Part shown: in pieces, positions 39,299 through 57,533 of the stretch
How the letters are laid out: each line of letters begins with the position of its first letter
Numbering within the stretch: the stretch's first letter is position 1
Sequence record: MN850610.1
Length of the DNA: 64,000 nt
Strand: one strand, 5' to 3'
Source of the DNA: Escherichia phage Andreotti
The notes under the pieces: model-generated
Told to the model about the DNA's origin: nothing
What the model saw: the letters and a program-made list of their open reading frames with translations, nothing else
The model's database searches: none
Program-made: the position numbers and the translations under genes

Positions 39299-40408
39299 TT
39301 ATTCTTGAGCGTCAGAACGAACATCTACCAGCAACTGAGGACGTGTGCAGTATGGCAGCATGTAAGAGTGAGCTTCAAAGTCAATACCTTCGTCACGGTC
39401 TTTTTCGTATTCGAATACGTACAGTTCCTGACCCAAAGTATTTGCATAACCCATCTTAGGACATGGGCCATATGCCACTTCGAAGATGTTGTTTGCTTCA
39501 CCCAGCATAGAAACGTTAGGGAAAGCATGACCTACACCTACAGTTCCATCCTGAGTAACACCATCAATACTAACCAGAGTATGAACCTTACCACGCTTGT
39601 CTTTGAACTTACCGTTGTACTGGACAAACTTAACACCACCGTAGTAGAAAGTGTTCATATGAGCCTGAACGCCGTCAGCACCACCAGTTCTCAGAGAACC
39701 AGTAATCTGTTGCCAAGCCAGTGGAGTCTGCTGTGCAAGATAAGCGTCACGAATCTTAGGGTGCTTAACCAGTTTGCTGAAGAATACACGGTCAACAACT
39801 ACGTGAATTTCTTCACCGTTGATTACAGTGCCAGTCTTAGCTTCGTCTTCCATGTGCATACGCAGTTCTTCAATAGCAGCATCGATGTCAGCATTAGGGT
39901 TGTCAAGGTCGAAGTAAATAGTCTTCTTCTCAACGTCGAACTGCTTGTACAGGTCAGCATACAGAGTACCACGAGCATCAACAACTTTACCCTTCAGAGC
40001 TTGCATAAACAAGAACTCACGAGTAATATCGAACTTGGTACGAATCTTCATCAGCTTCTTAGCACGTACTACAGCTTCAGTAGTCAGTTCGTTTGCAGTG
40101 CCTGGCTGACGTACACCCTGAATCTCATCAGGAGTAATGCTTTCAACTTCTTTGAAGTACATCATTGGGAAGCTGATTTGACGAACACGCTCAGGTGCGC
40201 TAGTCTCTGCTTTACGGCTATCACGGTCTACCGCATCAAGCAAGCTAACATCCCAATCAGTCAAGTCCATAAGGAAAGTAGTTTGGGTGATTGGTGCTGA
40301 ACGGAACAGACCTAAGTTGGAAATATACCCATAAGTATTAGGGATAGACTGGACTTCACCAGTCAGGTCAGCAAGGAAAAATCTGCTTTTTTCAGAATTA
40401 GTCAACAT
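39299..40408 (-). CDS. major capsid protein (by size and position)
   Basis: 369 aa downstream of protease/scaffold and decoration-like genes; long antisense ORF 39305-40300 judged spurious. Confidence 0.6.
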   Translation of the reverse strand: MLTNSEKSRFFLADLTGEVQSIPNTYGYISNLGLFRSAPITQTTFLMDLTDWDVSLLDAVDRDSRKAETSAPERVRQISFPMMYFKEVESITPDEIQGVRQPGTANELTTEAVVRAKKLMKIRTKFDITREFLFMQALKGKVVDARGTLYADLYKQFDVEKKTIYFDLDNPNADIDAAIEELRMHMEDEAKTGTVINGEEIHVVVDRVFFSKLVKHPKIRDAYLAQQTPLAWQQITGSLRTGGADGVQAHMNTFYYGGVKFVQYNGKFKDKRGKVHTLVSIDGVTQDGTVGVGHAFPNVSMLGEANNIFEVAYGPCPKMGYANTLGQELYVFEYEKDRDEGIDFEAHSYMLPYCTRPQLLVDVRSDAQE

Positions 40409-46540: not shown

Positions 46541-46616
46541 TAAAATAACTTGGAGAATCCGAAGGGACTCGAACCCTTATAAACCTGTTTTGCAGACAGG
46601 CACATATCCATTTCTG
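46541..46616 (-). tRNA. tRNA-Cys (anticodon GCA)
   Basis: manual cloverleaf: 7-bp acceptor GAATCCG/CGGATTC, T-arm AAGGG-TTCGAGT-CCCTT, anticodon loop CUGCAAA, CCA encoded. Confidence 0.75.
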
Positions 46617-46620
46617 TCAC

Positions 46621-46713
46621 GGATTCAAATTGGAGGAAGATACCAGACTTGAACTGGTACACCGATTTCTCAGCTACTGGCAGTTTAGCAAACTGCTCCC
46701 TTACCTTTTAGGG
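46621..46713 (-). tRNA. tRNA-Ser (anticodon GCU), class II with long variable arm
   Basis: 93 nt; acceptor GGAAGAT/ATCTTCC, anticodon stem GCAGT/ACTGC, loop UUGCUAA, T-loop TTCAAGT. Confidence 0.7.
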
Positions 46714-46724
46714 TTAATCTTCCA

Positions 46725-47459
46725 TTATTTCTGTAATGCGCTCTTCATTTCTGGTGTTGCAATAGTGTCAATCACACCAGTTTTACAAGCATCGTCAAAC
46801 CAGTCTGGTAAGATACCTGCTAAGAACCCATTGATATTCGTTTTAAGGTACTCTGCAATAAGGGCAGCTTCTTCTTCAATCATCTGCACAACTTCATCTG
46901 CATAAGCTGTAATCTTTGAAATACCTTCATTAATCTTACTGACAGCTTGGTTAGCTAAATCAGAAACAGTATCAAGACCCTTATCAATAGCATCTTGTAA
47001 GTCACTTAACACACCATTAACACTATCTAGTGTACTGTTCATCATGTCAATAGCTTTTTGACCATACTCTGTAGCAACACCCATGATACCACTGAATGGT
47101 GTACAACCAACTTGTTCTCCTGCTGCACCCATAACATTGGAATACCCCTTTGCTACCTGCATACGTGATGAAAACTCATCAATAGATTTTTGACCGTAGT
47201 CTGTCAGAGTTTTAGTAGTTGCTGTAGTGCTTGTAAGGCTTGTTGTAAAGCTGTTTAGAAGGACTGTTGTAAGTCCAGCAGCAACAAGTTTCTCCTTCAT
47301 TGTAGGGTCTGTTACAGAACTAATAGAGCTTACAAGTGATGTAGAAGCAGCTACGGTTCCACCGAGAACTGCTGCACCAGTAATAAGCGGGTTAGAGAAC
47401 CCTTTACCAGTTTTTAAGAGATTAAAAATCTCCTTACCTTGTTCTGTCATCTCTTTCAT
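46725..47459 (-). CDS. hypothetical protein (244 aa) embedded in tRNA array
   Basis: track ORF 46725-47522 trimmed to ATG 47459 (MKEMTEQ...) so it does not overlap tRNA-Phe; Ser/Thr/Ala-rich. Confidence 0.55.
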   Translation of the reverse strand: MKEMTEQGKEIFNLLKTGKGFSNPLITGAAVLGGTVAASTSLVSSISSVTDPTMKEKLVAAGLTTVLLNSFTTSLTSTTATTKTLTDYGQKSIDEFSSRMQVAKGYSNVMGAAGEQVGCTPFSGIMGVATEYGQKAIDMMNSTLDSVNGVLSDLQDAIDKGLDTVSDLANQAVSKINEGISKITAYADEVVQMIEEEAALIAEYLKTNINGFLAGILPDWFDDACKTGVIDTIATPEMKSALQK

Positions 47460-47475
47460 TAAGCACCTTTGAAAT

Positions 47476-47552
47476 TGGTAGTCCAGTGGGATTTGAACCC
47501 TCTTCTCATGTTTTTCAGACACGCGCTTTAACCATATAAGCTACTTGGACTA
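47476..47552 (-). tRNA. tRNA-Phe (anticodon GAA), tentative
   Basis: anticodon arm CGTGT-CUGAAAA-ACATG; T-loop TTCAAAT with one stem mismatch; ends approximate. Confidence 0.55.
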
Positions 47553-47557
47553 TAAAT

Positions 47558-47633
47558 TGGGGTGACCTACGGGATTTGAACCCGTATAGACCATGTTCAC
47601 AGCATGGGTCATTACCGTTTATGATAAGGCCAC
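47558..47633 (-). tRNA. tRNA-His (anticodon GUG)
   Basis: acceptor with one G-U, T-arm ACGGG-TTCAAAT-CCCGT, anticodon stem CCATG/CATGG, CCA encoded. Confidence 0.7.
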
Positions 47634-47664
47634 ATTTAAGGACTCTCGCAAGAATCCTTAGAAG

Positions 47665-47740
47665 TGGCAGCGGCATAAGGATTTGAACCTTAATAGGACA
47701 GCTTCAGAGGCTGCTGCATTGCCAGTTATGCTATACCGCT
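47665..47740 (-). tRNA. tRNA-Gln (anticodon CUG)
   Basis: T-arm TAAGG-TTCAAAT-CCTTA; anticodon loop CUCUGAA; CCA encoded. Confidence 0.65.
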
Positions 47741-47745
47741 AAATT

Positions 47746-47824
47746 TGGTACTCCATATCGGATTCGAACCGATACATAACACAGATTTTAAGTCTGGCCT
47801 CTCTGCCAATTGGAGTAATGGAGC
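47746..47824 (-). tRNA. tRNA with Leu anticodon UAA, short variable region (atypical)
   Basis: T-arm ATCGG-TTCGAAT-CCGAT, anticodon loop CUUAAAA, D-loop AAUUGGCAG, A73, CCA encoded, 79 nt. Confidence 0.55.
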
Positions 47825-47826
47825 AT

Positions 47827-47902
47827 TGGCGGGGGATGTTGGAATTGAACCAACTTCTTCGATTTCAAAGACCGAGGTTTTAACCTTGTAAACTAATCCC
47901 CT
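47827..47902 (-). tRNA. tRNA-Gln (anticodon UUG)
   Basis: T-arm GTTGG-TTCAATT-CCAAC, anticodon loop CUUUGAA; 1-72 mismatch. Confidence 0.6.
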
Positions 47903-47910
47903 TTAAATCT

Positions 47911-48468
47911 TTACTTTCTCAGTGGATGAATAAAGAATGCCAACATAACTCTTTCCCTTGAGAATGCTCTTTCTTCTGGGACAACACTTTTTAGTTTCCA
48001 TCCAACATAAATTCTCCAGTAAAACTGTTTACCAAAGATTTTAATTGACGGAATAAAAGCGAATAATCCCCAAGCATTGTTGTTCCACATTAGGAGATAA
48101 CCTGTCTGATTATCTTCAGGGTCAGAACTTACGTTGATATTACCTTTCCACTTAGTAACATCTTTTACATCTCTTCCTAATACATGGTAAGAGAAGTTAT
48201 AAGCTTTGTTTCTCCAGAGCCATCCAACTCTCTGCATATAAACACCGAGCTTGCCAATCTTTCTAATCTTAGCCCATCTCTCAACGTGGCCTTTATCACC
48301 ATCAATCGGGTTGTCATAGGTCTCCATCCATCTGAATCCAAAAGGTAGATGCCCTTTCTTCTCACTGTAGAATGGAACTACGAAAGGTGCTAAGATGACT
48401 GCTAGGGTTGCTGCAAATGGTTCTAGTAAAGCTAGGAAAATCCATGAAGCATACTTCAAATATCTCAT
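47911..48468 (-). CDS. hypothetical membrane protein (185 aa) within tRNA array
   Basis: N-terminal hydrophobic segment WIFLALLEPFAATLAVILAPFVVPF; AAGAGG RBS. Confidence 0.55.
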   Translation of the reverse strand: MRYLKYASWIFLALLEPFAATLAVILAPFVVPFYSEKKGHLPFGFRWMETYDNPIDGDKGHVERWAKIRKIGKLGVYMQRVGWLWRNKAYNFSYHVLGRDVKDVTKWKGNINVSSDPEDNQTGYLLMWNNNAWGLFAFIPSIKIFGKQFYWRIYVGWKLKSVVPEERAFSRERVMLAFFIHPLRK

Positions 48469-48486
48469 CTAAATAGCCTCTTAAAA

Positions 48487-48564
48487 TTGGTGTTCCAAGA
48501 CGGATTCGAACCGTCACTAATACAAGGTTTGAGCTTGCATCCTCTGCCAATTGGGATACTGGAA
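48487..48564 (-). tRNA. tRNA with Leu anticodon CAA, short variable region (atypical)
   Basis: T-arm GACGG-TTCGAAT-CCGTC, anticodon arm GCAAG-CUCAAAC-CUUGU, D-loop AAUUGGCAG, A73. Confidence 0.55.
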
Positions 48565-48565
48565 C

Positions 48566-48640
48566 ATGGTACTCACTAAAGGACTTGAACCTTTTTCTTC
48601 ATCTTGTAAGGGTGATGTTTTACCATATAAACTAAGCGAG
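48566..48640 (-). tRNA. tRNA-Val (anticodon UAC)
   Basis: T-arm AAAGG-TTCAAGT-CCTTT; anticodon stem 5 bp incl. G-U, loop CUUACAA. Confidence 0.7.
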
Positions 48641-48736
48641 TGTGAAAGAGGTCTGAAGTTGTGCCGCTAACTCAACTCCGTGGAATTTGTTACGGTCTTC
48701 AGTTGACACCAGCGGTCTTTCACTTGACCTCTGAAT

Positions 48737-48813
48737 TGGTGCTGCTCACAGGACTCGAACCTGCATTTCCATCCTTACAAGGGATGTGTAATAGCCAATT
48801 ATACGAAAGCAGC
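48737..48813 (-). tRNA. tRNA-Thr (anticodon UGU)
   Basis: T-loop TTCGAGT; anticodon stem 5 bp, loop CUUGUAA. Confidence 0.7.
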
Positions 48814-48819
48814 ATTGTT

Positions 48820-48894
48820 TGGAGCATCCAGAGGGAATCGAACCCTCAACCTCAGTTTGGAAGACTGTAATTTTCCCGTTTAAACTATGGATGC
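48820..48894 (-). tRNA. tRNA-Gly (anticodon UCC)
   Basis: perfect acceptor, T-arm GAGGG-TTCGATT-CCCTC, anticodon loop CUUCCAA. Confidence 0.7.
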
Positions 48895-48900
48895 ACTAAT

Positions 48901-48976
48901 TGGTGGAGTCACTGAGAATTGAACTCAGTTCCCAAGTTTGCAAAACTCGAATTTTAACCATATAAACTATGACCCC
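48901..48976 (-). tRNA. tRNA-Ala (anticodon UGC)
   Basis: G3-U70 pair in acceptor (Ala identity element); T-arm CTGAG-TTCAATT-CTCAG; anticodon loop UUUGCAA. Confidence 0.7.
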
Positions 48977-48982
48977 ATTGTT

Positions 48983-49058
48983 TGGTACAGGTGGAGGGAA
49001 TTGAACCCATCGTCTTACTGATTAAGAGTCAGCCGCATAACCATTTTGCTACACCTGC
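48983..49058 (-). tRNA. tRNA-Lys (anticodon CUU), tentative
   Basis: T-loop TTCAATT with one stem mismatch; anticodon loop CUCUUAA. Confidence 0.55.
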
Positions 49059-49065
49059 ATTAATT

Positions 49066-49143
49066 TGGTAGGAGACAAGGGATTCGAACCCTCAAACATC
49101 TCGTTCTAAGCGAGATAGGTTTACCAATTACCGTCAATCTCCC
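49066..49143 (-). tRNA. tRNA with Leu anticodon UAG, short variable region (atypical)
   Basis: anticodon arm TCTCG-CUUAGAA-CGAGA perfect; T-loop TTCGAAT; D-loop AAUUGGUAA; A73. Confidence 0.55.
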
Positions 49144-49400
49144 ATTAAATCTTTTTAGAGAACTCCTAAGAACCTAAGCAACAAGGTTCCACAACAAGCT
49201 GTAATAACCTTAGAAGCCCTCTAAAAAGACCTAAAAAGGTCTTTGCATAGTCTTGTTTAATCCGGTGACTAGAACCTTTGGAGAGCTTGATATTATCTCT
49301 TCTCCGTGACACCTACTAGGTGTTTTATCAGTGTGTACGACAATACACGAGGGATACCAAAGCAACATCCGAATGAAGCTTGGCTTTAAATCTTATTAGG

Positions 49401-49488
49401 CGGTAAGTAAAGGAGTCGAACCCTCACCGTATCTCTACAGTGGCAACTGTTTTCAAGACAGTTTGGCTACCATTAGCCGCTACCTACC
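49401..49488 (-). tRNA. tRNA-Ser (anticodon UGA), class II
   Basis: 88 nt; 6-bp anticodon stem AACTGT/ACAGTT, loop CUUGAAA; 19-nt variable arm; T-loop TTCGACT; CCA not encoded. Confidence 0.65.
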
Positions 49489-49501
49489 CCTAATAAGATT
49501 T

Positions 49502-49584
49502 TGGCATGGGACGGAGGAGTTGAACCCCTTTGAAACGGTGTTGGAAGCCGTTGCTCATGCCTTAGAGTCTTAACATCGTCCCAT
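49502..49584 (-). tRNA. tRNA-Trp (anticodon CCA) with enlarged D region
   Basis: perfect acceptor ATGGGAC/GTCCCAT, anticodon arm ACGGC-UUCCAAC-ACCGU; about 7 extra nt between acceptor and anticodon stem. Confidence 0.5.
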
Positions 49585-49724
49585 ACTATAATTCGAAGCT
49601 TACCGTATTATCTCAACACTGTAAAGCCCCTTCTCAGATTATTTACATGTTCTGGAAAACATGAGATACAGACCACCTCCCTACAGGAAGACCCGCTAAG
49701 GTCGTCTAAGTAATCTGCTAACTA

Positions 49725-49801
49725 ATTGGCACACCCTACAGGATTCGAACCTGTAACTAACGATTTAGAAGACCGTTGCTCTATCCAATTGAACTAAGGG
49801 T
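49725..49801 (-). tRNA. tRNA-Arg (anticodon UCU)
   Basis: T-arm ACAGG-TTCGAAT-CCTGT; anticodon loop CUUCUAA. Confidence 0.65.
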
Positions 49802-50049
49802 GCATTAATCTTTAAAGACTCTCTTAGAAAGCCCTTAAAGATGCCCACCTTATTAATCATACCGTGGGCGAGTACGCCAAATTCTTTGATGAGGGATTGG
49901 AAGACCTCACTGGTGTTTAGCCTATCAAGCTACTGCCAGAAAAACATTGTCGTTTGCATTTATTTTAAATTTGCAAAATAGACGCTACGCAACGAAAACT
50001 AAGGGTACTATAAAGTAGTCACATCTCAATGTCAACAACTTTATTGAAT

Positions 50050-50124
50050 TTGGTTGTAGGTGAGGGTATCGAACCCTCTTCTAACGGTTATCAGCCGTTT
50101 GCATTACCATTTATGCTAACCCAC
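50050..50124 (-). tRNA. tRNA-Ile (anticodon GAU)
   Basis: T-arm GAGGG-TTCGATA-CCCTC; perfect 5-bp anticodon stem, loop CUGAUAA. Confidence 0.75.
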
Positions 50125-50126
50125 AA

Positions 50127-50203
50127 TTGGAGGTTCAGATGGGATTCGAACCCACATTCATAGGGCTTATGAGACCCTTGCATTACCTTATCTGCGACTG
50201 AAC
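50127..50203 (-). tRNA. tRNA-Met (anticodon CAU), elongator-type
   Basis: perfect acceptor GGTTCAG/CTGAACC; T-loop TTCGAAT; anticodon loop CUCAUAA. Confidence 0.65.
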
Positions 50204-50207
50204 CATT

Positions 50208-50283
50208 TTGGTAGAAGTGGAGGGATTCGAACCCATCGCCTGTCAGATTAAAAGTCTGCCGCATCACCATTCTGCTACACTTC
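50208..50283 (-). tRNA. tRNA-Lys (anticodon UUU)
   Basis: T-loop TTCGAAT; anticodon loop CUUUUAA. Confidence 0.6.
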
Positions 50284-50293
50284 CATTAAATTA

Positions 50294-50440
50294 TCTTTGT
50301 AGATAAGCTACCCAGACTTGCTTAAGGTCTGTAGCGATGTGCCTTTATGGGTTTAAAATCTAGAATTTACCCTTTCACCCTTTGTGGTCGCATACTCACA
50401 GGTAAGCTTAATAACTTATCTACAAAGATAATTACCAGAC
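50294..50440 (-). repeat. structured non-coding element bounded by a perfect 17-bp inverted repeat
   Basis: TTATCTTTGTAGATAAG (50294-50310) and its exact reverse complement (50424-50440) enclose 113 nt containing nested inverted repeat GCTACCCAGAC / GTCTGTAGC. Confidence 0.6.
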
Positions 50441-50713
50441 CGTTATTTATCATCTTAAGTGCTACCATTACACCAACTCGACATCTGCCGAGTGAAGGAA
50501 TCGAACCTTCGCCTTTTCTTTACCGAGAAATAGATTGTTTAAGTTTTGCTGTAAACGGTCTTCTGTAAATTTGTTGAGCCAGACCAAGTTTTAAATTTTT
50601 CAAAATTGAATTGGCTTGAAATTTTAAGTAACTTGCTGAATTTGGTCTTCTGCTCCTTTAAAGGATACTCGTAAGAACCCTTTAAGGGAGGGGCTAAATA
50701 GCCCTCTCAAAAT

Positions 50714-50789
50714 TGGCGAGGTATGCGAGAATCGAACTCGCGGCTCAGGAGAGACAGTCCCGTATTTTGCCCATCTAAACTAATACCCC
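50714..50789 (-). tRNA. tRNA-Asp (anticodon GUC), tentative
   Basis: acceptor GGGGTAT/ATACCTC, T-arm GCGAG-TTCGATT-CTCGC; anticodon loop CUGUCUC has U at position 37. Confidence 0.55.
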
Positions 50790-50795
50790 AAAAAT

Positions 50796-51224
50796 CTATG
50801 TACCATTTCTTAGGTACTTCTCTTTACGCCTTGCTGGATTGTAGTGCTTGCGTCCTTCTGCGTTTTTAGCAAGTCTGCAAGGTTCACACCTACAACCTCT
50901 TCTATAACCAGACACTGTGCCATGTTTAATTGGTGTGTATTTCCTATCACCAATCTGGGCTGGCCTAGTTGCTTTTGAATTACATTGTATGTGGCTGTAA
51001 GATATATTGTCAAGTGAGAAGAAAAGCTCTTTTGCATTCTCTTCATGTCTCCAAGGAACTTTATGTTCTATAGAGAAATCAACTCTGGACATTTCTTTTC
51101 CACAATGGTGACACTTATTCTGTCCAGTTTTACAAACCAAATCAAAGAGTAAATCTTTAACAAGCCTGTTCTGGGCTGTTCCTAAGCTCATACCAAGTTG
51201 TGACTTGTAAACTTCATTCTTCAT
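50796..51224 (-). CDS. HNH endonuclease (putative homing endonuclease) inside tRNA array
   Basis: CHHCGKEMSRVDFSIEHKVPWRHEEN...H (HNH-type His/Asn spacing); C-terminal GYRRGCRCEPCR. Confidence 0.7.
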   Translation of the reverse strand: MKNEVYKSQLGMSLGTAQNRLVKDLLFDLVCKTGQNKCHHCGKEMSRVDFSIEHKVPWRHEENAKELFFSLDNISYSHIQCNSKATRPAQIGDRKYTPIKHGTVSGYRRGCRCEPCRLAKNAEGRKHYNPARRKEKYLRNGT

Positions 51225-51246
51225 AGTATCAACATCTTATTAAAAT

Positions 51247-51331
51247 TGGTGCGCCCATCTGGACTCGAACCAGAAACCTTGAAAGGGACAGTTTTACAGA
51301 CTGCTGCATTGACCATCTCTGCCATGAACGC
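51247..51331 (-). tRNA. tRNA-Tyr (anticodon GUA), class II
   Basis: 85 nt; T-arm TCTGG-TTCGAGT-CCAGA; anticodon loop CUGUAAA; hairpin variable arm; CCA encoded. Confidence 0.65.
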
Positions 51332-51341
51332 ATTTAAATTT

Positions 51342-51418
51342 TGGCGGTTAGTCAGGGATTCGAACCCTGTGCCATTCGCTTAACAGGCGACCGCACATAC
51401 CTTATGTGCTTCCTAACC
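51342..51418 (-). tRNA. tRNA-Asn (anticodon GUU)
   Basis: T-arm CAGGG-TTCGAAT-CCCTG; anticodon loop CUGUUAA. Confidence 0.65.
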
Positions 51419-51495
51419 TTAATACATTGCCAGACCGTGTTTTTTCTTTTATCCGCAAAAAGTATTTTGTTGCTGTAAACGGTCTTCTGTAAATT

Positions 51496-51571
51496 TGGAG
51501 GCGGGTGCAGGAGTCGAACCTGCCGATACCATGCTAATGAGACATGTGAGACGCCCTTTCTCTATACCCGC
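51496..51571 (-). tRNA. second CAU-anticodon tRNA (Met, or Ile2 via lysidine), irregular acceptor
   Basis: T-arm GCAGG-TTCGACT-CCTGC; anticodon loop CUCAUUA; acceptor pairs only with a 1-nt register shift. Confidence 0.45.
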
Positions 51572-51663
51572 AATTCTTAATGACCAGACCAAATCTCTTC
51601 TTTGTCCGATTTACCTTCAGATGAATAAGATTAAGTTTGCTGTAATTGGTCTTCTGTCAAAAC

Positions 51664-51741
51664 TGGCGTTCCAGAAGGGATTTGAACCCTCAGATATCCA
51701 CTTTGAAAGAGTGGTGACTATACCATTTTGTCTACTGGAAC
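51664..51741 (-). tRNA. tRNA-Glu (anticodon UUC)
   Basis: perfect acceptor; T-loop TTCAAAT; perfect 5-bp anticodon stem, loop CUUUCAA. Confidence 0.7.
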
Positions 51742-51748
51742 ATTAATT

Positions 51749-51825
51749 TGGTCTCTGTTGGAGGATTTGAACCTCCGGCCTTACCGCCCCAAACGGAACG
51801 CTCTACCAAGCTGAGCTAAACAGAG
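51749..51825 (-). tRNA. tRNA-Pro (anticodon UGG)
   Basis: perfect acceptor CTCTGTT/AACAGAG, T-arm GGAGG-TTCAAAT-CCTCC, anticodon loop UUUGGGG (G37). Confidence 0.7.
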
Positions 51826-51990: not shown

Positions 51991-53406
51991 TTACCAGATA
52001 TAACGGTCAATCATTACTGCTTTGAGCATTACACTGATTGGGTCAAACTTCTCACCACCAAGCAGAGCTTTTAAAGTGGCTGGAGAGAACCCTGATACCA
52101 TTGCTACACCGTTATCCTTAACAGATACTTCGCAAGTACCATTACGGTTTGCTAAGTACCAGAATACCAGTTGTGGCATCTCATATCCAGCTTTTTTGTA
52201 CTTACTCTGAATTGCTTCAAAGTTTGTACGTCCGTTAGCTCCATCAACCTGATTGAACTCCATATCGGAGAAGATGATAAGCTTACTTGGCATATCTTTC
52301 TGAGTCAAGTTGTTTCTTTTACCTGTTTCAAGAATGCGGTCAAAAGCTGCTTGTAAGTTAGTTGAGCCATATTCAACGTGTCGCATCACCTGACGATGAC
52401 GGTTTCGTAAATCACCACTCAGTTCGATGAAGTGAGGGTTTGTTGAATAAACCATCAACTCATTCTTAAAGCAACCTGTATTGCGTTCTGCTACATACAA
52501 GGCAAGTGATACACCAATATCAAGAGCAGTAATGGAGCCAAAATTCACCCAAGACATTGAGCTTGAAACATCAGACATACATAGAATGTTTTCACCCTCT
52601 GCCATCCAGTTTGGTAGTGCTTTCCACTGCTCATTAGCAACATCTGCATTACCATACTTAACAGATTTAATCACATCGTATGGGTAAACAGCACCAGCGT
52701 TAATCTTAGTCTCACCTTTTGATAAGGACTCGATGTAAGCTTTGTAACGTTCCCCATCTTTACGGTTAAAGAGTTTTTGGTAACGTGCAGCAGCAAGTGA
52801 AGGAATCTTACTGTAGTCAATCTTACCAAACTCATTAGCAGAGATTTTTTGCTCAACTGTATCAGAGAGTGCAGACAACAGTGTGCGGTACTCTTTCTCA
52901 CTCAAGTTGGCAAATTTGCAGAAACGTTTTACAAACTGCTTGTGACGTGGTTTGACTCGTGGTAACCACTTAGCTGCCAAACCTGCTGTTGCAGGGTCTA
53001 GTAATGCTGCTTCTAAATGTTTGAAGGCATCTGTCTCGAAACGAGTACCTACGAAGATTTTGAAGTCATCAAAACGACCAAGTTCTGCAATCTTATCCAT
53101 AATGCGAAGAACCTGTGCAGGCTCTAAAACTTTGTCTTCAATCGCTTGAAGCAAAACAGTTCTGAAGGCTTTACGCTCACCCATACCTTCTCGTACATCT
53201 CGCATATGCAGTAAAATACGAACTGAAACATCAACATCCTCACGCAAAGCTTTGTAGAACAGGTCTGGTAAGATTTCTACATTGCTACGACTTGAACCAG
53301 CAGCTTTGTAAAAGTCTACAAGAGCAGACATTGATGAAGTATGGTTTACAGCACCATTTTCAGTTCGACCTGCATGAAGGTGCGCATGTTTAAATAACTC
53401 GCTCAT
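51991..53406 (-). CDS. von Willebrand factor A (vWA) domain protein with N-terminal helical domain (471 aa)
   Basis: MIDAS-type DxSxS motif in LCMSDVSSSM followed by alternating hydrophobic strands; about 250-aa helical N-terminal region; directly upstream of tRNA array. Confidence 0.6.
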   Translation of the reverse strand: MSELFKHAHLHAGRTENGAVNHTSSMSALVDFYKAAGSSRSNVEILPDLFYKALREDVDVSVRILLHMRDVREGMGERKAFRTVLLQAIEDKVLEPAQVLRIMDKIAELGRFDDFKIFVGTRFETDAFKHLEAALLDPATAGLAAKWLPRVKPRHKQFVKRFCKFANLSEKEYRTLLSALSDTVEQKISANEFGKIDYSKIPSLAAARYQKLFNRKDGERYKAYIESLSKGETKINAGAVYPYDVIKSVKYGNADVANEQWKALPNWMAEGENILCMSDVSSSMSWVNFGSITALDIGVSLALYVAERNTGCFKNELMVYSTNPHFIELSGDLRNRHRQVMRHVEYGSTNLQAAFDRILETGKRNNLTQKDMPSKLIIFSDMEFNQVDGANGRTNFEAIQSKYKKAGYEMPQLVFWYLANRNGTCEVSVKDNGVAMVSGFSPATLKALLGGEKFDPISVMLKAVMIDRYIW

Positions 53407-53859: not shown

Positions 53860-53988
53860 TGGTATGCCTCTTATAAGACCTCTTAAAAGGCTTTTAAGAT
53901 AAAAGATAGATATCCAGAAAGATATCTGTTTAAATAGCCTTTTTAGAGGAACCTTTTAAGTTATCTTCTAAGTATTTATAAGCCTACA

Positions 53989-54010
53989 CCTTGTCAAGTA
54001 CTTTGTCAAC
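53989..54010. promoter_or_regulatory. conserved control element CCTTGTCAAGTACTTTGTCAAC in divergent intergenic region
   Basis: 20 of 22 nt identical to 11341-11362; lies between divergent operons. Confidence 0.4.
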
Positions 54011-54108
54011 AACTTTTTTAACTTGCAATAGTTCTTGACTTGTTGTATGGATTACTGTACCATCTTACTTAAAGCTGTAGGTCTGCCTTGTTCTACAAAG
54101 GAGACTTA

Positions 54109-54270: not shown

Positions 54271-54485
54271 AAATCGCAGATATTATAGATTTATATCAAA
54301 CTGCAAAGAGTCATGGCTATATAACCTCAATTGGAAAGAATAGTCACTATGATGCTTTGACTGGAATGTATTTCAGGGCAATGGCTCAATCTAGTGAACA
54401 ACACTTAATGGTTTCTTCCAGTGAGTTTACTTCGTTTCTCTATTGCAGCAAAATTATAAATCGCAGGAGAACTGAAAAATGTTAA
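54252..54485 (+). CDS. hypothetical protein (77 aa)
   Basis: ORF track. Confidence 0.35.
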   Translation: MCSSQLEIADIIDLYQTAKSHGYITSIGKNSHYDALTGMYFRAMAQSSEQHLMVSSSEFTSFLYCSKIINRRRTEKC

Positions 54486-55069
54486 CAGTAAGTTTTAATT
54501 ACAATAGTGATGGCTCTGTATCAATTAATTCACCATATGCAAATGACCTACTTAAAGAGCTAGTCAATCAGTGTGATAGAGGTCTTCACTATGTTCAAAA
54601 TTCTTTTAAACAGAAGACTATTGCTAATAACTTGATGCGTGTAACAGTGACGGCATCGAATCCAAATTATGACTTTGATAGTGAAAGTCCGTACTCATTA
54701 GTTGCGCTTGGAGAGAGCAGCCAATTCAAACTTGTTTGCCACGACTCAGAAACATTCCTTAAGGTATTTTCAAACCTTATCCATAATAATAAGTACAGCT
54801 ACGTTGATGGTAGTGTAAACTTCTATCCAGCAAACTATACATGTTTGTTGGTTGACAATATGAGAAAAAGTAAGCAAGAACCTACAGAAATTTCATTTGA
54901 TGTGAACTCTAGTCCAGACGCAGAAACAAGTAAGAACTTTGATATGAGTTACGCATTGTCACTCAGTAAGAAATCCGAGTTCATTGATTATGTCAATGGA
55001 TTTGGTTTTAAGTTTGATGAGAGTATGAATCTTAAAAAACTTAAGAACCTACTTAAGACCAAAGCTTAA
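54479..55069 (+). CDS. hypothetical protein (196 aa)
   Basis: ORF track. Confidence 0.55.
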   Translation: MLTVSFNYNSDGSVSINSPYANDLLKELVNQCDRGLHYVQNSFKQKTIANNLMRVTVTASNPNYDFDSESPYSLVALGESSQFKLVCHDSETFLKVFSNLIHNNKYSYVDGSVNFYPANYTCLLVDNMRKSKQEPTEISFDVNSSPDAETSKNFDMSYALSLSKKSEFIDYVNGFGFKFDESMNLKKLKNLLKTKA

Positions 55070-55116
55070 GTGTGAATAGGGGCTGATGCCCCTTTAACTA
55101 TTTATAAGGATATTTA

Positions 55117-55488
55117 ATGAAAGCTAAGAGTGCAAAAGACTTTTATTACTTCCTACAATCCTATATCAATTCCGTGCAAAATGGTGAAAGGTACAACCTT
55201 AATGATGTTATCCCAACACCTTTGACATGGAGACTCAGCAAATGGCCTGAAGAAGATATTACACCAACAAGCGAACAGCGTACCTACAAACCTGAAATCA
55301 ATATTCCAGATTCTGAGAACCTATTATATCCAATGTTCCATATTGTTGGACTTGGAAGATTCCTTATGGATATCCAGTATGTAATTGGTAAAGGTTATAA
55401 GGTTAAAGGTATTGTTGTTGGTGATGTATCTCCGCATCACAAAGGTTATTTTAGACTAAACGCACATTTAGAGGCTAAAAAGAAATGA
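55117..55488 (+). CDS. hypothetical protein (123 aa), paralog of N-terminal domain of next gene
   Basis: shares pattern with N-terminus of 55485-56618 (F..F...I..V..G.RY..., YKP...P.S..LLY, FFMDLQY). Confidence 0.55.
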   Translation: MKAKSAKDFYYFLQSYINSVQNGERYNLNDVIPTPLTWRLSKWPEEDITPTSEQRTYKPEINIPDSENLLYPMFHIVGLGRFLMDIQYVIGKGYKVKGIVVGDVSPHHKGYFRLNAHLEAKKK

Positions 55489-56618
55489 TTAAAGCAAAGA
55501 CTTACCCAGACTTCAAAGAGTTTGTGAAGGGTTTCATTGCAAATGTAAAGGCTGGTAAGAGATATGATTTTAGAACATATCAAGAGGCTATTTTACCACT
55601 TACCTATAGTTCATATTGGCCTGAAGCTGATATTGCAGAAGCTGAGAAGTTTGACTACAAACCAGACTACAAAGTTCCATTTAGTGATGAATTGCTTTAC
55701 AGTGTTGGTGCACAGATGAGAACTGCTGATTTCTTCATGGATTTGCAGTATGCAATCATCAATGGTAAAGATGTTGACACAATTTACTGTGAATGGTTGG
55801 CAAGAGTTAAACCGTTCTCAATGTTGAATGCTAAGTTGAAGGATGCTATTAAGCCACCAGCAATTACTCAGCAACCAACAGGTCAAACAGTCAATGAGGG
55901 TGGCACACTTACTCTAAGCATTCTAGCAACTAACGCCACTGGATATCAGTGGAAGAAGGATGGTGAGGATATCCCTAGTGCCAATTCTGCAACTTACACA
56001 AAACAGTCAGTAGCACCTTCTGACGCTGGTTCATACACTTGTGTTGTATCTGGAGAGGGTGGAACAAGTGTTACCTCAGATGCAGCAACAGTGACTGTGA
56101 ACGCACTACCTGTGATTACCAAGCAACCTTCTAACCAGACTATTAATGAAGGTGGAAACATCAACTTAGCAGTTACTGCAACTGGTGCAACTGGTTACCA
56201 ATGGAAGAAAGATGGCTCTGACATTCCTTCAGCGACAAATGCTACCTATAGCAAGTCTGGTGCTCTGCCAGCAGATGCAGGTTCATACACTTGCGTTGTA
56301 ACAGGTGCAGGTGGTTCTGTCACTTCTAGCCCTGCAACGGTTATTGTTAACGCACTTCCGGTAATCACTCAACAGCCAACCAATCAAGAAATCACTGAAG
56401 GTGAGACTTTAATACTGAATGTTGTGGCAACAGGTGCAACAGGTTACCAGTGGAAGAAAGGTGAGGAAGACATCCTCGATGCAACTGCTGCAACTTACAC
56501 CAAAGAAGGTGCAACCACTGCTGATGCAGGAAGCTACACTTGTGTAGTTACTGGTGCAGGTGGCTCTGTAACATCTAATGCAGTAACAGTTACAGTTAAC
56601 CCAGCAGGGGAGGCATAA
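55485..56618 (+). CDS. protein with three tandem Ig-like repeats (377 aa)
   Basis: three about 80-aa repeats with conserved ATGYQWKKDG...ATYTK...ADAGSYTCVV pattern (Ig-like, Hoc-like); N-terminal domain paralogous to 55117-55488. Confidence 0.65.
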   Translation: MIKAKTYPDFKEFVKGFIANVKAGKRYDFRTYQEAILPLTYSSYWPEADIAEAEKFDYKPDYKVPFSDELLYSVGAQMRTADFFMDLQYAIINGKDVDTIYCEWLARVKPFSMLNAKLKDAIKPPAITQQPTGQTVNEGGTLTLSILATNATGYQWKKDGEDIPSANSATYTKQSVAPSDAGSYTCVVSGEGGTSVTSDAATVTVNALPVITKQPSNQTINEGGNINLAVTATGATGYQWKKDGSDIPSATNATYSKSGALPADAGSYTCVVTGAGGSVTSSPATVIVNALPVITQQPTNQEITEGETLILNVVATGATGYQWKKGEEDILDATAATYTKEGATTADAGSYTCVVTGAGGSVTSNAVTVTVNPAGEA

Positions 56619-57082
56619 TGCAACTCTCAAGAAAAGGTTTAGAAGCTATTAAGTTCTTTGAAGGTCTTAAGCTTGAGGCTTACGAAGATTCTGCTGGAAT
56701 CCCCACAATTGGGTATGGGACAATTCGTATTGGTGGGAAGCCTGTTAAGATGGGTATGAAGATTACCGCTGAACAAGCTGAACAGTATCTTCTCGCAGAT
56801 GTTGAAAAGTTCGTTGCAGCAGTGAACAAAGCTATCAAGATTCCAACTTCTCAGAACGAGTTTGATGCACTTGTAAGTGAAACATACAACATTGGTATCA
56901 CAGCTATGCAGGACTCTACATTTATCAAGCGCCACAACGCTGGTAATAAGGTAGGTTGTGCAGAAGCTATGCAGTGGTGGAACAAGGTTACAGTCAAAGG
57001 TCAGAAGGTCACTTCAAACGGCCTGAAAAACAGACGTAGAATGGAAGCTGACATTTATCTTGACAGTGTATACCCAAAGTAA
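56618..57082 (+). CDS. endolysin, lysozyme-like (GH24-type)
   Basis: N-terminal LEAIKFFEGLKLEAYEDSAGIPTIGYG resembles the catalytic Glu/Asp region of phage lysozymes; 154 aa; followed by terminator. Confidence 0.75.
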   Translation: MQLSRKGLEAIKFFEGLKLEAYEDSAGIPTIGYGTIRIGGKPVKMGMKITAEQAEQYLLADVEKFVAAVNKAIKIPTSQNEFDALVSETYNIGITAMQDSTFIKRHNAGNKVGCAEAMQWWNKVTVKGQKVTSNGLKNRRRMEADIYLDSVYPK

Positions 57083-57092
57083 TATCTTCATA

Positions 57093-57117
57093 GGCTCCTT
57101 CGGGAGCCTTTTTTTAT
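57093..57117 (+). terminator. rho-independent terminator
   Basis: AGGCTCC-TTCG-GGAGCCT hairpin followed by TTTTTTT. Confidence 0.65.
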
Positions 57118-57134
57118 TTTCTAAGGAGAAAACT

Positions 57135-57533
57135 ATGAAGCTTTGGGCTAGTGACTTTGGAACTTTTAAGTACACTCGTAACGGCTCGCTTGTACGTATC
57201 ATTGGAAGTAACGTTGTTACAGTTGGAGATAGGGTACATACAAGGTTTACTGTTGAGTTGGTTGAACTATCGCCTATTGAGTCTGCTAATAATGGTTTAT
57301 TCAAGTTTGAAACTTACCATGTAAATGAGCATGGACAGTTTAATACTCTAGGTGAAAGTGGTCTCGATATTATTTCAGAGAACCCATTGACAAGAGAGCA
57401 ACTTGCAGGTTACTATAAAACCATTCTTGAAAGAACTTTGGCGACACATGAGCATGAAGCCAGATATCACATTGAACGGTGTGAAGTTCTAAAAGCAAAA
57501 ATCGAACAAGCAGAGAGAGGTTTTTATGAATAA
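57135..57533 (+). CDS. hypothetical protein (132 aa)
   Basis: track ORF 57060-57533 trimmed to ATG 57135 with AAGGAG RBS. Confidence 0.55.
   Translation: MKLWASDFGTFKYTRNGSLVRIIGSNVVTVGDRVHTRFTVELVELSPIESANNGLFKFETYHVNEHGQFNTLGESGLDIISENPLTREQLAGYYKTILERTLATHEHEARYHIERCEVLKAKIEQAERGFYE

Follow-up and report, generated by a model that had tools for sequence, protein, structure and literature searches.

A Hoc-like capsid decoration gene and its anchor-only paralog beside the endolysin gene of Escherichia phage Andreotti

Escherichia phage Andreotti carries, next to its lysozyme gene, two overlapping plus-strand genes, of which the larger encodes a protein with tandem Ig-like repeats and the smaller a protein without them. 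They were analysed within a stretch of 64,000 nucleotides of sequence record MN850610.1, here called the window, which belongs to a Felixounavirus (a Felix O1-like myophage) and whose DNA at this locus is 92-97% identical to many Felixounavirus genomes. The explanation that best accounts for the pair as a whole, and which is very probably right, is that the large gene encodes the capsid decoration protein Hex-Dec and that the small gene is a duplicate of its anchor domain, CapBD, alone. That the large gene is the Ounavirinae Hex-Dec ortholog, and that the two genes are homologous, is close to certain; the small gene is apparently an undescribed, anchor-only member of the CapBD family.

A first-pass annotation of the window, made from the letters alone, had already placed both open reading frames (ORFs) on the plus strand at the positions listed below. 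It had also recognised the small gene as a paralog of the N-terminal domain of the large one, counted three tandem Ig-like repeats, remarked that the pair lies next to the lysozyme and not in the virion module, and given Hoc-like decoration as what phage proteins with Ig domains usually do, all of which holds. The N-terminal domain that it delimited is real, its length having to be corrected from about 125 aa to about 118-123 aa. The genes and domains of the locus, and the capsid gene to which they relate, are as follows.

55117-55488, plus strand: small gene, stand-alone CapBD paralog (phrog_4463), an ORF of 123 aa without Ig domains
55485-56618, plus strand: Hex-Dec, Hoc-like capsid decoration protein (phrog_3995, mislabelled "tail protein"), 377 aa
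55485-55838, plus strand: CapBD of Hex-Dec (aa 1-118), from the PDB alignment, with R79 and R107 conserved
55851-56102, plus strand: Ig-like repeat 1, from Pfam Ig_3 at residues 124-189 and the alignment of the three units
56103-56351, plus strand: Ig-like repeat 2, from Pfam Ig_2 and I-set at residues 209-288 and the unit alignment
56352-56615, plus strand: Ig-like repeat 3 and a short C-terminal tail, from Pfam and the unit alignment
56618-57082, plus strand: endolysin, a T4-type lysozyme of 154 aa (Phage_lysozyme PF00959, E=2.4e-40; phrog_7 endolysin)
39299-40408, minus strand: major capsid protein (MCP), the binding partner of Hex-Dec (matches to 9ncf_A and 9c2d_A)

The small gene and the Hex-Dec gene overlap in the sequence ATGA, and the start of the lysozyme gene overlaps the stop of the Hex-Dec gene, the gap between these two being -1 in most loci compared. 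The MCP gene lies with the virion module, about 15 kb from the Hex-Dec gene and on the opposite strand.

Identity and capsid binding of Hex-Dec

In a search of PDB sequences the large protein aligns over residues 1-371 with 9ncf_S of phage Bas63 ("Immunoglobulin-like domain protein", E=3.3e-290) and, from residue 1 onwards, with 9c2d_S/9c3a of phage Sf14 ("tail protein", E=2.5e-167). Cryo-electron microscopy (cryo-EM) of these two phages has defined the N-terminal ~118 aa as the CapBD, a largely helical domain with two pseudo-C2 lobes which is placed, as a monomer, in the middle of those hexamers of a T=9 capsid that are pentamer-proximal (facet-edge) (PMC11821841, PMC12609058). The true-3-fold hexamers carry no such density, and the Ig domains are flexible and unresolved in both maps (PMC11821841, PMC12609058). 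In Sf14, where the protein is gp20 and was found in particles by mass spectrometry, salt bridges link Arg79 and Arg107 to Asp221 of the MCP (PMC11821841). Both arginines are present in the window Hex-Dec and are invariant among 23 distinct Hex-Dec CapBDs. The window MCP, which matches 9ncf_A with E=1.4e-242 and 9c2d_A with E=2.9e-233 and is about 98% identical to the MCP of Bas63, retains the Asp of "KIRDAYL" (D221 in Sf14 numbering). Carried over from the orthologs, the arrangement in this phage would be one in which the CapBD docks as a monomer in 60 facet-edge MCP hexamers, with Arg79 and Arg107 facing Asp221. The three flexible Ig domains would project outward, where they would probably serve adhesion or aggregation by analogy with T4 Hoc.

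Expression and virion content are documented for Felix O1, whose gp36, a two-Ig ortholog encoded beside the lysin gp35, was found in 2010 in CsCl-purified virions with 14 peptides and 44% coverage (PMC3185647). ORFs 36 and 37 of that phage belong to the late class by reverse transcription PCR (RT-PCR), alongside the portal and tail-fibre genes (PMC3185647). The remote position of the gene has been commented on twice, for Felix O1 in 2010 as an odd location (PMC3185647) and for Hex-Dec in 2025 as "more than 10 kb outside of the structural module" (PMC12609058). These publications overtake what else the first-pass annotation had proposed. It had left the shared N-terminal domain without a function, which is outdated now that the Sf14 and Bas63 structures identify the domain as CapBD, and it was wrong to read the location as an argument against a virion role, given the presence of Felix O1 gp36 in virions and its late expression. 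The large protein is also not the unconventional one that it had suspected: by orthology it is a late decoration protein with a characterised anchor, as the CapBD structures, the virion mass spectrometry of Felix O1 and the late RT-PCR class already in the literature show.

It is scarcely credible that the Ig-repeat protein is instead a tail protein, or a cell-surface binder that is associated with lysis and partnered with the lysozyme. Database labels such as "tail protein" and "HK97 major tail subunit" and matches to PHROG major-tail families speak for the former, and a gene that abuts the endolysin for the latter. The tail families phrog_158, phrog_853 and phrog_3575 match nothing but the Ig region, however, at residues ~96-208; the ortholog was seen by cryo-EM on capsid hexamers, and the authors of the Bas63 study call the "tail" annotation incorrect (PMC12609058). 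The label goes back to record AF320576 and its annotation "HK97 major tail subunit". Against a part in lysis, the lysin of Felix O1 peaks at 25 min and ORFs 36 and 37 at 60 min (PMC3185647). Neither the tail role nor the lysis-associated role can be reconciled with the solved structures 9NCF and 9C2D. The large gene itself adds little that is new, and its value lies in correcting a widespread "tail protein" label.

The gene order around Hex-Dec is stable. Small gene, large gene and lysozyme gene follow one another in 25 of 25 complete IMG/VR loci and in a divergent 87-kb metagenomic contig (L061), and in all of these an overlap of 4-8 nt between the small gene and the Hex-Dec gene is invariant. 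Sf14 has the trio in the same order as gp21 (small), gp20 and gp19 (lysin). In the Kolesnikvirus phage Fifi318 the order is gp117 (ortholog of the window gene 54479-55069), a CapBD-Big_2 protein (gp116) and the lysin, with no small copy. Because this synteny is kept in Kolesnikvirus, Sf14, the IMG/VR loci and L061, the position of Hex-Dec beside the lysin is ancestral for the Ounavirinae and not a sign of a role in lysis.

The Pfam families Ig_3, Ig_2 and I-set each match Hex-Dec in three stretches (E down to 6e-32), and alignment of the protein resolves three units of ~83 aa which are ~65% identical to one another. Tandem Repeats Finder reported no long-period array in the Ig region because the units have diverged too far in DNA, and protein alignment was therefore used to delimit them. 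Felixounavirus orthologs are 210, 294, 377 or 461 aa long (loci L006-L032), corresponding to one to four Ig units, and the window phage has the three-Ig variant. The stepwise lengths suggest that units are frequently gained and lost by recombination between these ~65%-identical repeats. The number of units also varies among phages that are otherwise near-identical, as already noted in PMC12609058.

The stand-alone CapBD paralog

The small protein is 38% identical to the large one over 101 aa (BLASTP, E=2e-17), and the two PHROG families cross-match, phrog_3995 finding the small protein with 4.6e-15 and phrog_4463 the large protein with 3.2e-16. Residues 2-117 of the small protein also match 9ncf_S directly (phmmer, 8e-12). 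An AlphaFold2 (AF2) model of it (pLDDT 66.7, pTM 0.67) retrieves by Foldseek, below E=1e-3, only 9ncf_S and 9c2d_S, with TM-scores of 0.68-0.70 over ~126 columns and a probability of 1.00. No match to the small protein was found in Pfam, NCBIfam or PADLOC. Orthologs are Sf14 gp21, VpaE1 gp40, AYO145A gp42 and, by gene order, Felix O1 gp37. The family is narrow, all of its members being 110-124 aa long and devoid of display (Ig-like) domains. The gene is not mentioned in the structure text and supplements for Sf14, in further Sf14 papers, in the Bas63 paper or in the wV8 paper.

Among 252 matching phage records the small gene is intact in about 232; about 19 records have a match to the large gene only. 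By the NG86 method dN/dS is 0.13 for the small gene (313 pairs), as against 0.045 for the CapBD of Hex-Dec, 0.12 for the first Ig unit and 0.08 for the lysozyme. The small gene is under purifying selection which is more relaxed than that on the parent CapBD. In Felixounavirus it occurs in two sequence types, of which one is 95-99% and the other 84-89% identical to the window copy (loci L006-L032 versus L033-L060), and the adjacent Hex-Dec CapBD remains 94-99% identical across both. Two types of small paralog beside a uniform CapBD suggest mosaic exchange or uneven rates across the 4-nt gene boundary.

The differences between the small protein and the CapBD of Hex-Dec are concentrated around the anchoring arginines of the latter. 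The site of R79 is Gly in every small copy, including the 44%-identical copy of L061 (P0097), and the site of R107 is a variable His/Gln, so that both anchoring arginines are absent. In segments 73-82 and 96-113, which contain these sites, the consensus sequences of the small family and of Hex-Dec share 0% and 11% identity compared with 44% elsewhere, and within either family both segments are strongly conserved (Fisher p=2e-4). A divergence concentrated in these segments is the pattern expected if the binding surface had changed and the fold had been kept.

Possible roles of the small protein

The small protein is probably not a stable component of the virion, and its gene can be lost. It is absent from the Felix O1 virion list (PMC3185647), it is not among the three extra proteins detected for VpaE1, its absence from the VpaE1 list itself being by inference, and cryo-EM of Sf14 and Bas63 shows no density on the other hexamers (PMC11821841, PMC12609058). 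In phages REP9 (L005 2306-2497) and Z31 (L004 2306-2497) the small gene is a relic which has lost its start codon and shares the same internal deletion of ~226 nt, and the Hex-Dec gene of REP9 is intact despite this decay. The small gene is dispensable, having decayed in one natural Felixounavirus sub-lineage. In Z31, the Hex-Dec gene is split into fragments of 134 aa and 55 aa.

As to what the small protein does, our best guess is that it is an accessory factor aimed at the capsid and either non-structural or transient. The gene is a tandem duplicate of the CapBD alone, which would be expressed late, co-transcribed with Hex-Dec and probably translationally coupled to it. Its product is predicted to keep the CapBD fold, with the arginine-bearing segments remodelled into separately conserved sequence. 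Tentatively, it may be a dispensable late accessory factor which binds a different target or state from that bound by Hex-Dec: the procapsid or the true-3-fold hexamers transiently, free MCP, or Hex-Dec itself.

Several points weigh against this explanation of the pair. Little weight can be put on the failure to detect the small protein, as the Felix O1 list has a cut-off of at least 25% coverage and Table 1 of the Sf14 study is restricted to assigned structural proteins, and icosahedral averaging would smear a monomer of 14 kDa that lies on a strict 3-fold axis. The model of the small protein is of moderate quality (pLDDT 66.7). The two divergent segments were picked after the alignment had been viewed, which makes the p-value of 2e-4 indicative only. 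Finally, Hex-Dec of the window is placed on the capsid by orthology, this phage being known from its sequence.

Of the alternatives, that of a regulator of decoration is on the unlikely side. The small protein would here be a headless competitor or assembly-stage blocker, occupying hexamer centres, for instance on procapsids, or binding Hex-Dec, and gone before maturation. The invariant overlap with the start of Hex-Dec, which implies coupled expression, is consistent with such a role, as are the late timing, the fold shared with the CapBD, the absence from mature virions and the dispensability that is expected of a modulator. The interaction is putative, though, that both anchoring arginines are gone speaks against the protein competing for the same site, and Kolesnikvirus decorates its capsid without a small copy. 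A related form of the idea, to which we give no greater chance, is that the headless paralog acts as a regulator or partner which binds the true-3-fold or procapsid hexamers that Hex-Dec cannot, and so helps to set the site-selectivity or timing of decoration. Neofunctionalisation towards a target other than the capsid, such as a factor of the host or a defence system that senses capsids, is unlikely. The protein does have conserved surface segments of its own that are unlike those of Hex-Dec, evolves faster than the Hex-Dec CapBD, is an accessory lost in some lineages and has not been seen in virions; but it matches no defence, anti-defence or other family in PADLOC, NCBIfam and Pfam, and its strict linkage to and co-expression with Hex-Dec suggest a related role.

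It is improbable that the small paralog is itself a decoration protein, a second one without Ig domains, on the 20 true-3-fold (facet-centre) hexamers, its segments being fitted to a shifted Asp221. The complete CapBD fold and a late gene co-expressed with Hex-Dec would suit this, and the positions of Asp221 do differ in Sf14's true-3-fold hexamers (PMC11821841), precisely the R79 and R107 segments being those in which the paralog differs. The net charge of the small protein, +4, would likewise suit a hexamer centre that is lined with Asp (PMC11821841). Both cryo-EM studies are nevertheless without density on these hexamers, the protein is missing from the Felix O1 virion list even though proteins of lower mass, among them the 9.7-kDa gp23, were detected there (PMC3185647) and from the extra VpaE1 detections, and the gene was lost in the REP9/Z31 lineage. 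That it is a functionless remnant of the duplication, now decaying, is very improbable. Such a reading accounts for its pseudogenisation in REP9 and Z31 without obvious cost and for selection more relaxed than on the parent domain. It fits poorly with a dN/dS of 0.13 over 313 pairs, with a gene that is intact in about 232 of 252 records and in a lineage only 44% identical (L061), and with a good Shine-Dalgarno sequence and many invariant, lineage-specific residues.

As a lead, the small gene is a modest one. Orthologs of the small gene occur in roughly 230 sequenced Ounavirinae genomes, including those of Salmonella and E. coli biocontrol phages. The role of the anchor-only copy could explain why Hex-Dec decorates facet-edge hexamers only. 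It could also help in employing the CapBD as a display anchor for T=9 capsids, a purpose that T5 pb10 and T4 Hoc have already served.

The CapBD family and the age of the duplication

CapBDs are few. A profile search run exhaustively over 1.84 billion cluster representatives yielded only 13 members; word-indexed protein searches had reached close relatives only, and the exhaustive search was needed for the distant ones. Pfam and NCBIfam contain no CapBD model, and fold searches with the domain match Ounavirinae proteins only. The distant members combine the CapBD with I-set, Big_2 or Big-like domains, with a tail rich in Lys or with an unassigned region of ~200 aa, and the anchor is modular, being joined to differing display modules. 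Two of these distant CapBD proteins, P0103 (153 aa) and P0104 (321 aa), have C-termini that are not Ig-like, one being a basic, low-complexity tail rich in Lys and Ser and the other a region of ~200 aa without a Pfam match.

Contig L061 encodes both lineages. Identity to the small and large proteins of the window is 44% and 33%, respectively, for its P0097, and 29% and 57% for its P0098. As L061 has both and Kolesnikvirus a single copy, the tandem duplication is old and postdates the split from Kolesnikvirus; it arose in the Felixounavirus/Mooglevirus branch. A gene of 205 aa lying upstream of one distant CapBD-Big_2 gene (L063) was considered as a further paralog and rejected (E=3.6); it is an ortholog of the window gene 54479-55069.

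The closest characterised relative is Hex-Dec of Bas63 (Escherichia phage JohannRWettstein, a Felixounavirus; 9NCF chain S), which has the same CapBD, type of Ig domain and MCP partner and whose gene likewise lies outside the structural module. It differs in having four Ig repeats (460 aa) and not three (377 aa), which falls within the polymorphism of one to four repeats already described for the genus (PMC12609058). Gp20 of Shigella phage Sf14 (9C2D/9C3A chain S) is an ortholog from a different genus, Mooglevirus, with three Ig repeats, conserved R79 and R107 and a CapBD about 83-90% identical to that of the window. More distant is the CapBD-Big_2 protein of Kolesnikvirus (Erwinia phage phiEa104; Fifi318 gp116), the CapBD of which is homologous (HMMER E=2e-10 to 3e-8; Foldseek probability 1.00). 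Its gene occupies the same site, between the phrog_4034 ortholog and the lysin, but its display domain is Big_2 in place of the Ig_3/I-set domains of the window and no stand-alone CapBD paralog accompanies it.

Like Hex-Dec, T4 Hoc is a monomer that occupies hexamer centres, is non-essential and consists of a small anchor and a string of Ig-like domains, and roles in adhesion, aggregation or environment-sensing have been proposed (PMC11821841, PMC12609058). The domain order is reversed, however, with the anchor C-terminal in Hoc and N-terminal in Hex-Dec, and the Hoc anchor is smaller, topologically distinct and without pseudo-C2 symmetry according to the Bas63 authors (PMC12609058). The PHROG Hoc-like families align to Hex-Dec only at residues ~120-370, the Ig region. 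Homology of the two anchors is ruled out by the reversed order and the different topology, which leaves Hoc as an analogue only. We know of no anchor-only paralog in T4. Similarity to T5 pb10 is limited to the Ig domain (8zvi_a residues 80-159; 5lxk_A), and the CapBD matched the pb10 chains neither in sequence nor by Foldseek.

Expression signals

The small gene, which corresponds by gene order to the late ORF37 of Felix O1, has a Shine-Dalgarno sequence, AAGGA, 8 nt upstream of its ATG. The three-gene unit is bounded by two hairpins.

55080-55093, plus strand: weak terminator-like element, a short G+C hairpin (GGGGCTGATGCCCC) with a T-rich tract behind it, in the gap that separates the small paralog from the upstream gene
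57092-57119 (elsewhere given as 57092-57109), plus strand: strong intrinsic terminator AGGCTCC-TTCG-GGAGCCT followed by T7, which ends the three-gene unit; a terminator is annotated there in AYO145A

The hairpin at 55080-55093 folds as RNA with -14.4 kcal/mol (z=-2.0) and went unscored in a simple terminator scan. In the AYO145A record the equivalent site is marked as a rho-independent terminator, and the same hairpin sequence is tabulated in the Felix O1 paper (PMC3185647). A promoter-like motif in the spacer before the small gene, CTATTTATAAGG, has 2 matches against 0.45 expected and does not form a family, and a scan for sigma-70 promoters found 8 sites where 11 were expected from shuffled sequences.

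Other features of the window

A cluster of 25 tRNA genes (46551-51825, minus strand) lies between the morphogenesis genes and a divergent control region, as in Felix O1 and Sf14. It is adjoined by the gene of a 471-aa protein (51991-53406, minus strand), which relatives list as "RNA-binding protein" and to which the Sf14 record assigns DUF2828. The divergent intergenic region itself, 53860-54090, separates a minus-strand DUF5681 gene from the plus-strand operon and contains several weak sigma-70-like sites; at its equivalent in Felix O1 the authors called the divergent transcription "odd" (PMC3185647). Downstream of the locus, a TTG-start ORF (57060-57533, plus strand) has its start within the lysozyme gene and runs across the terminator at 57092-57109. 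As PHROG 4266 covers residues 26-157 of its product only, the real start is probably an ATG near 57135, past the terminator.

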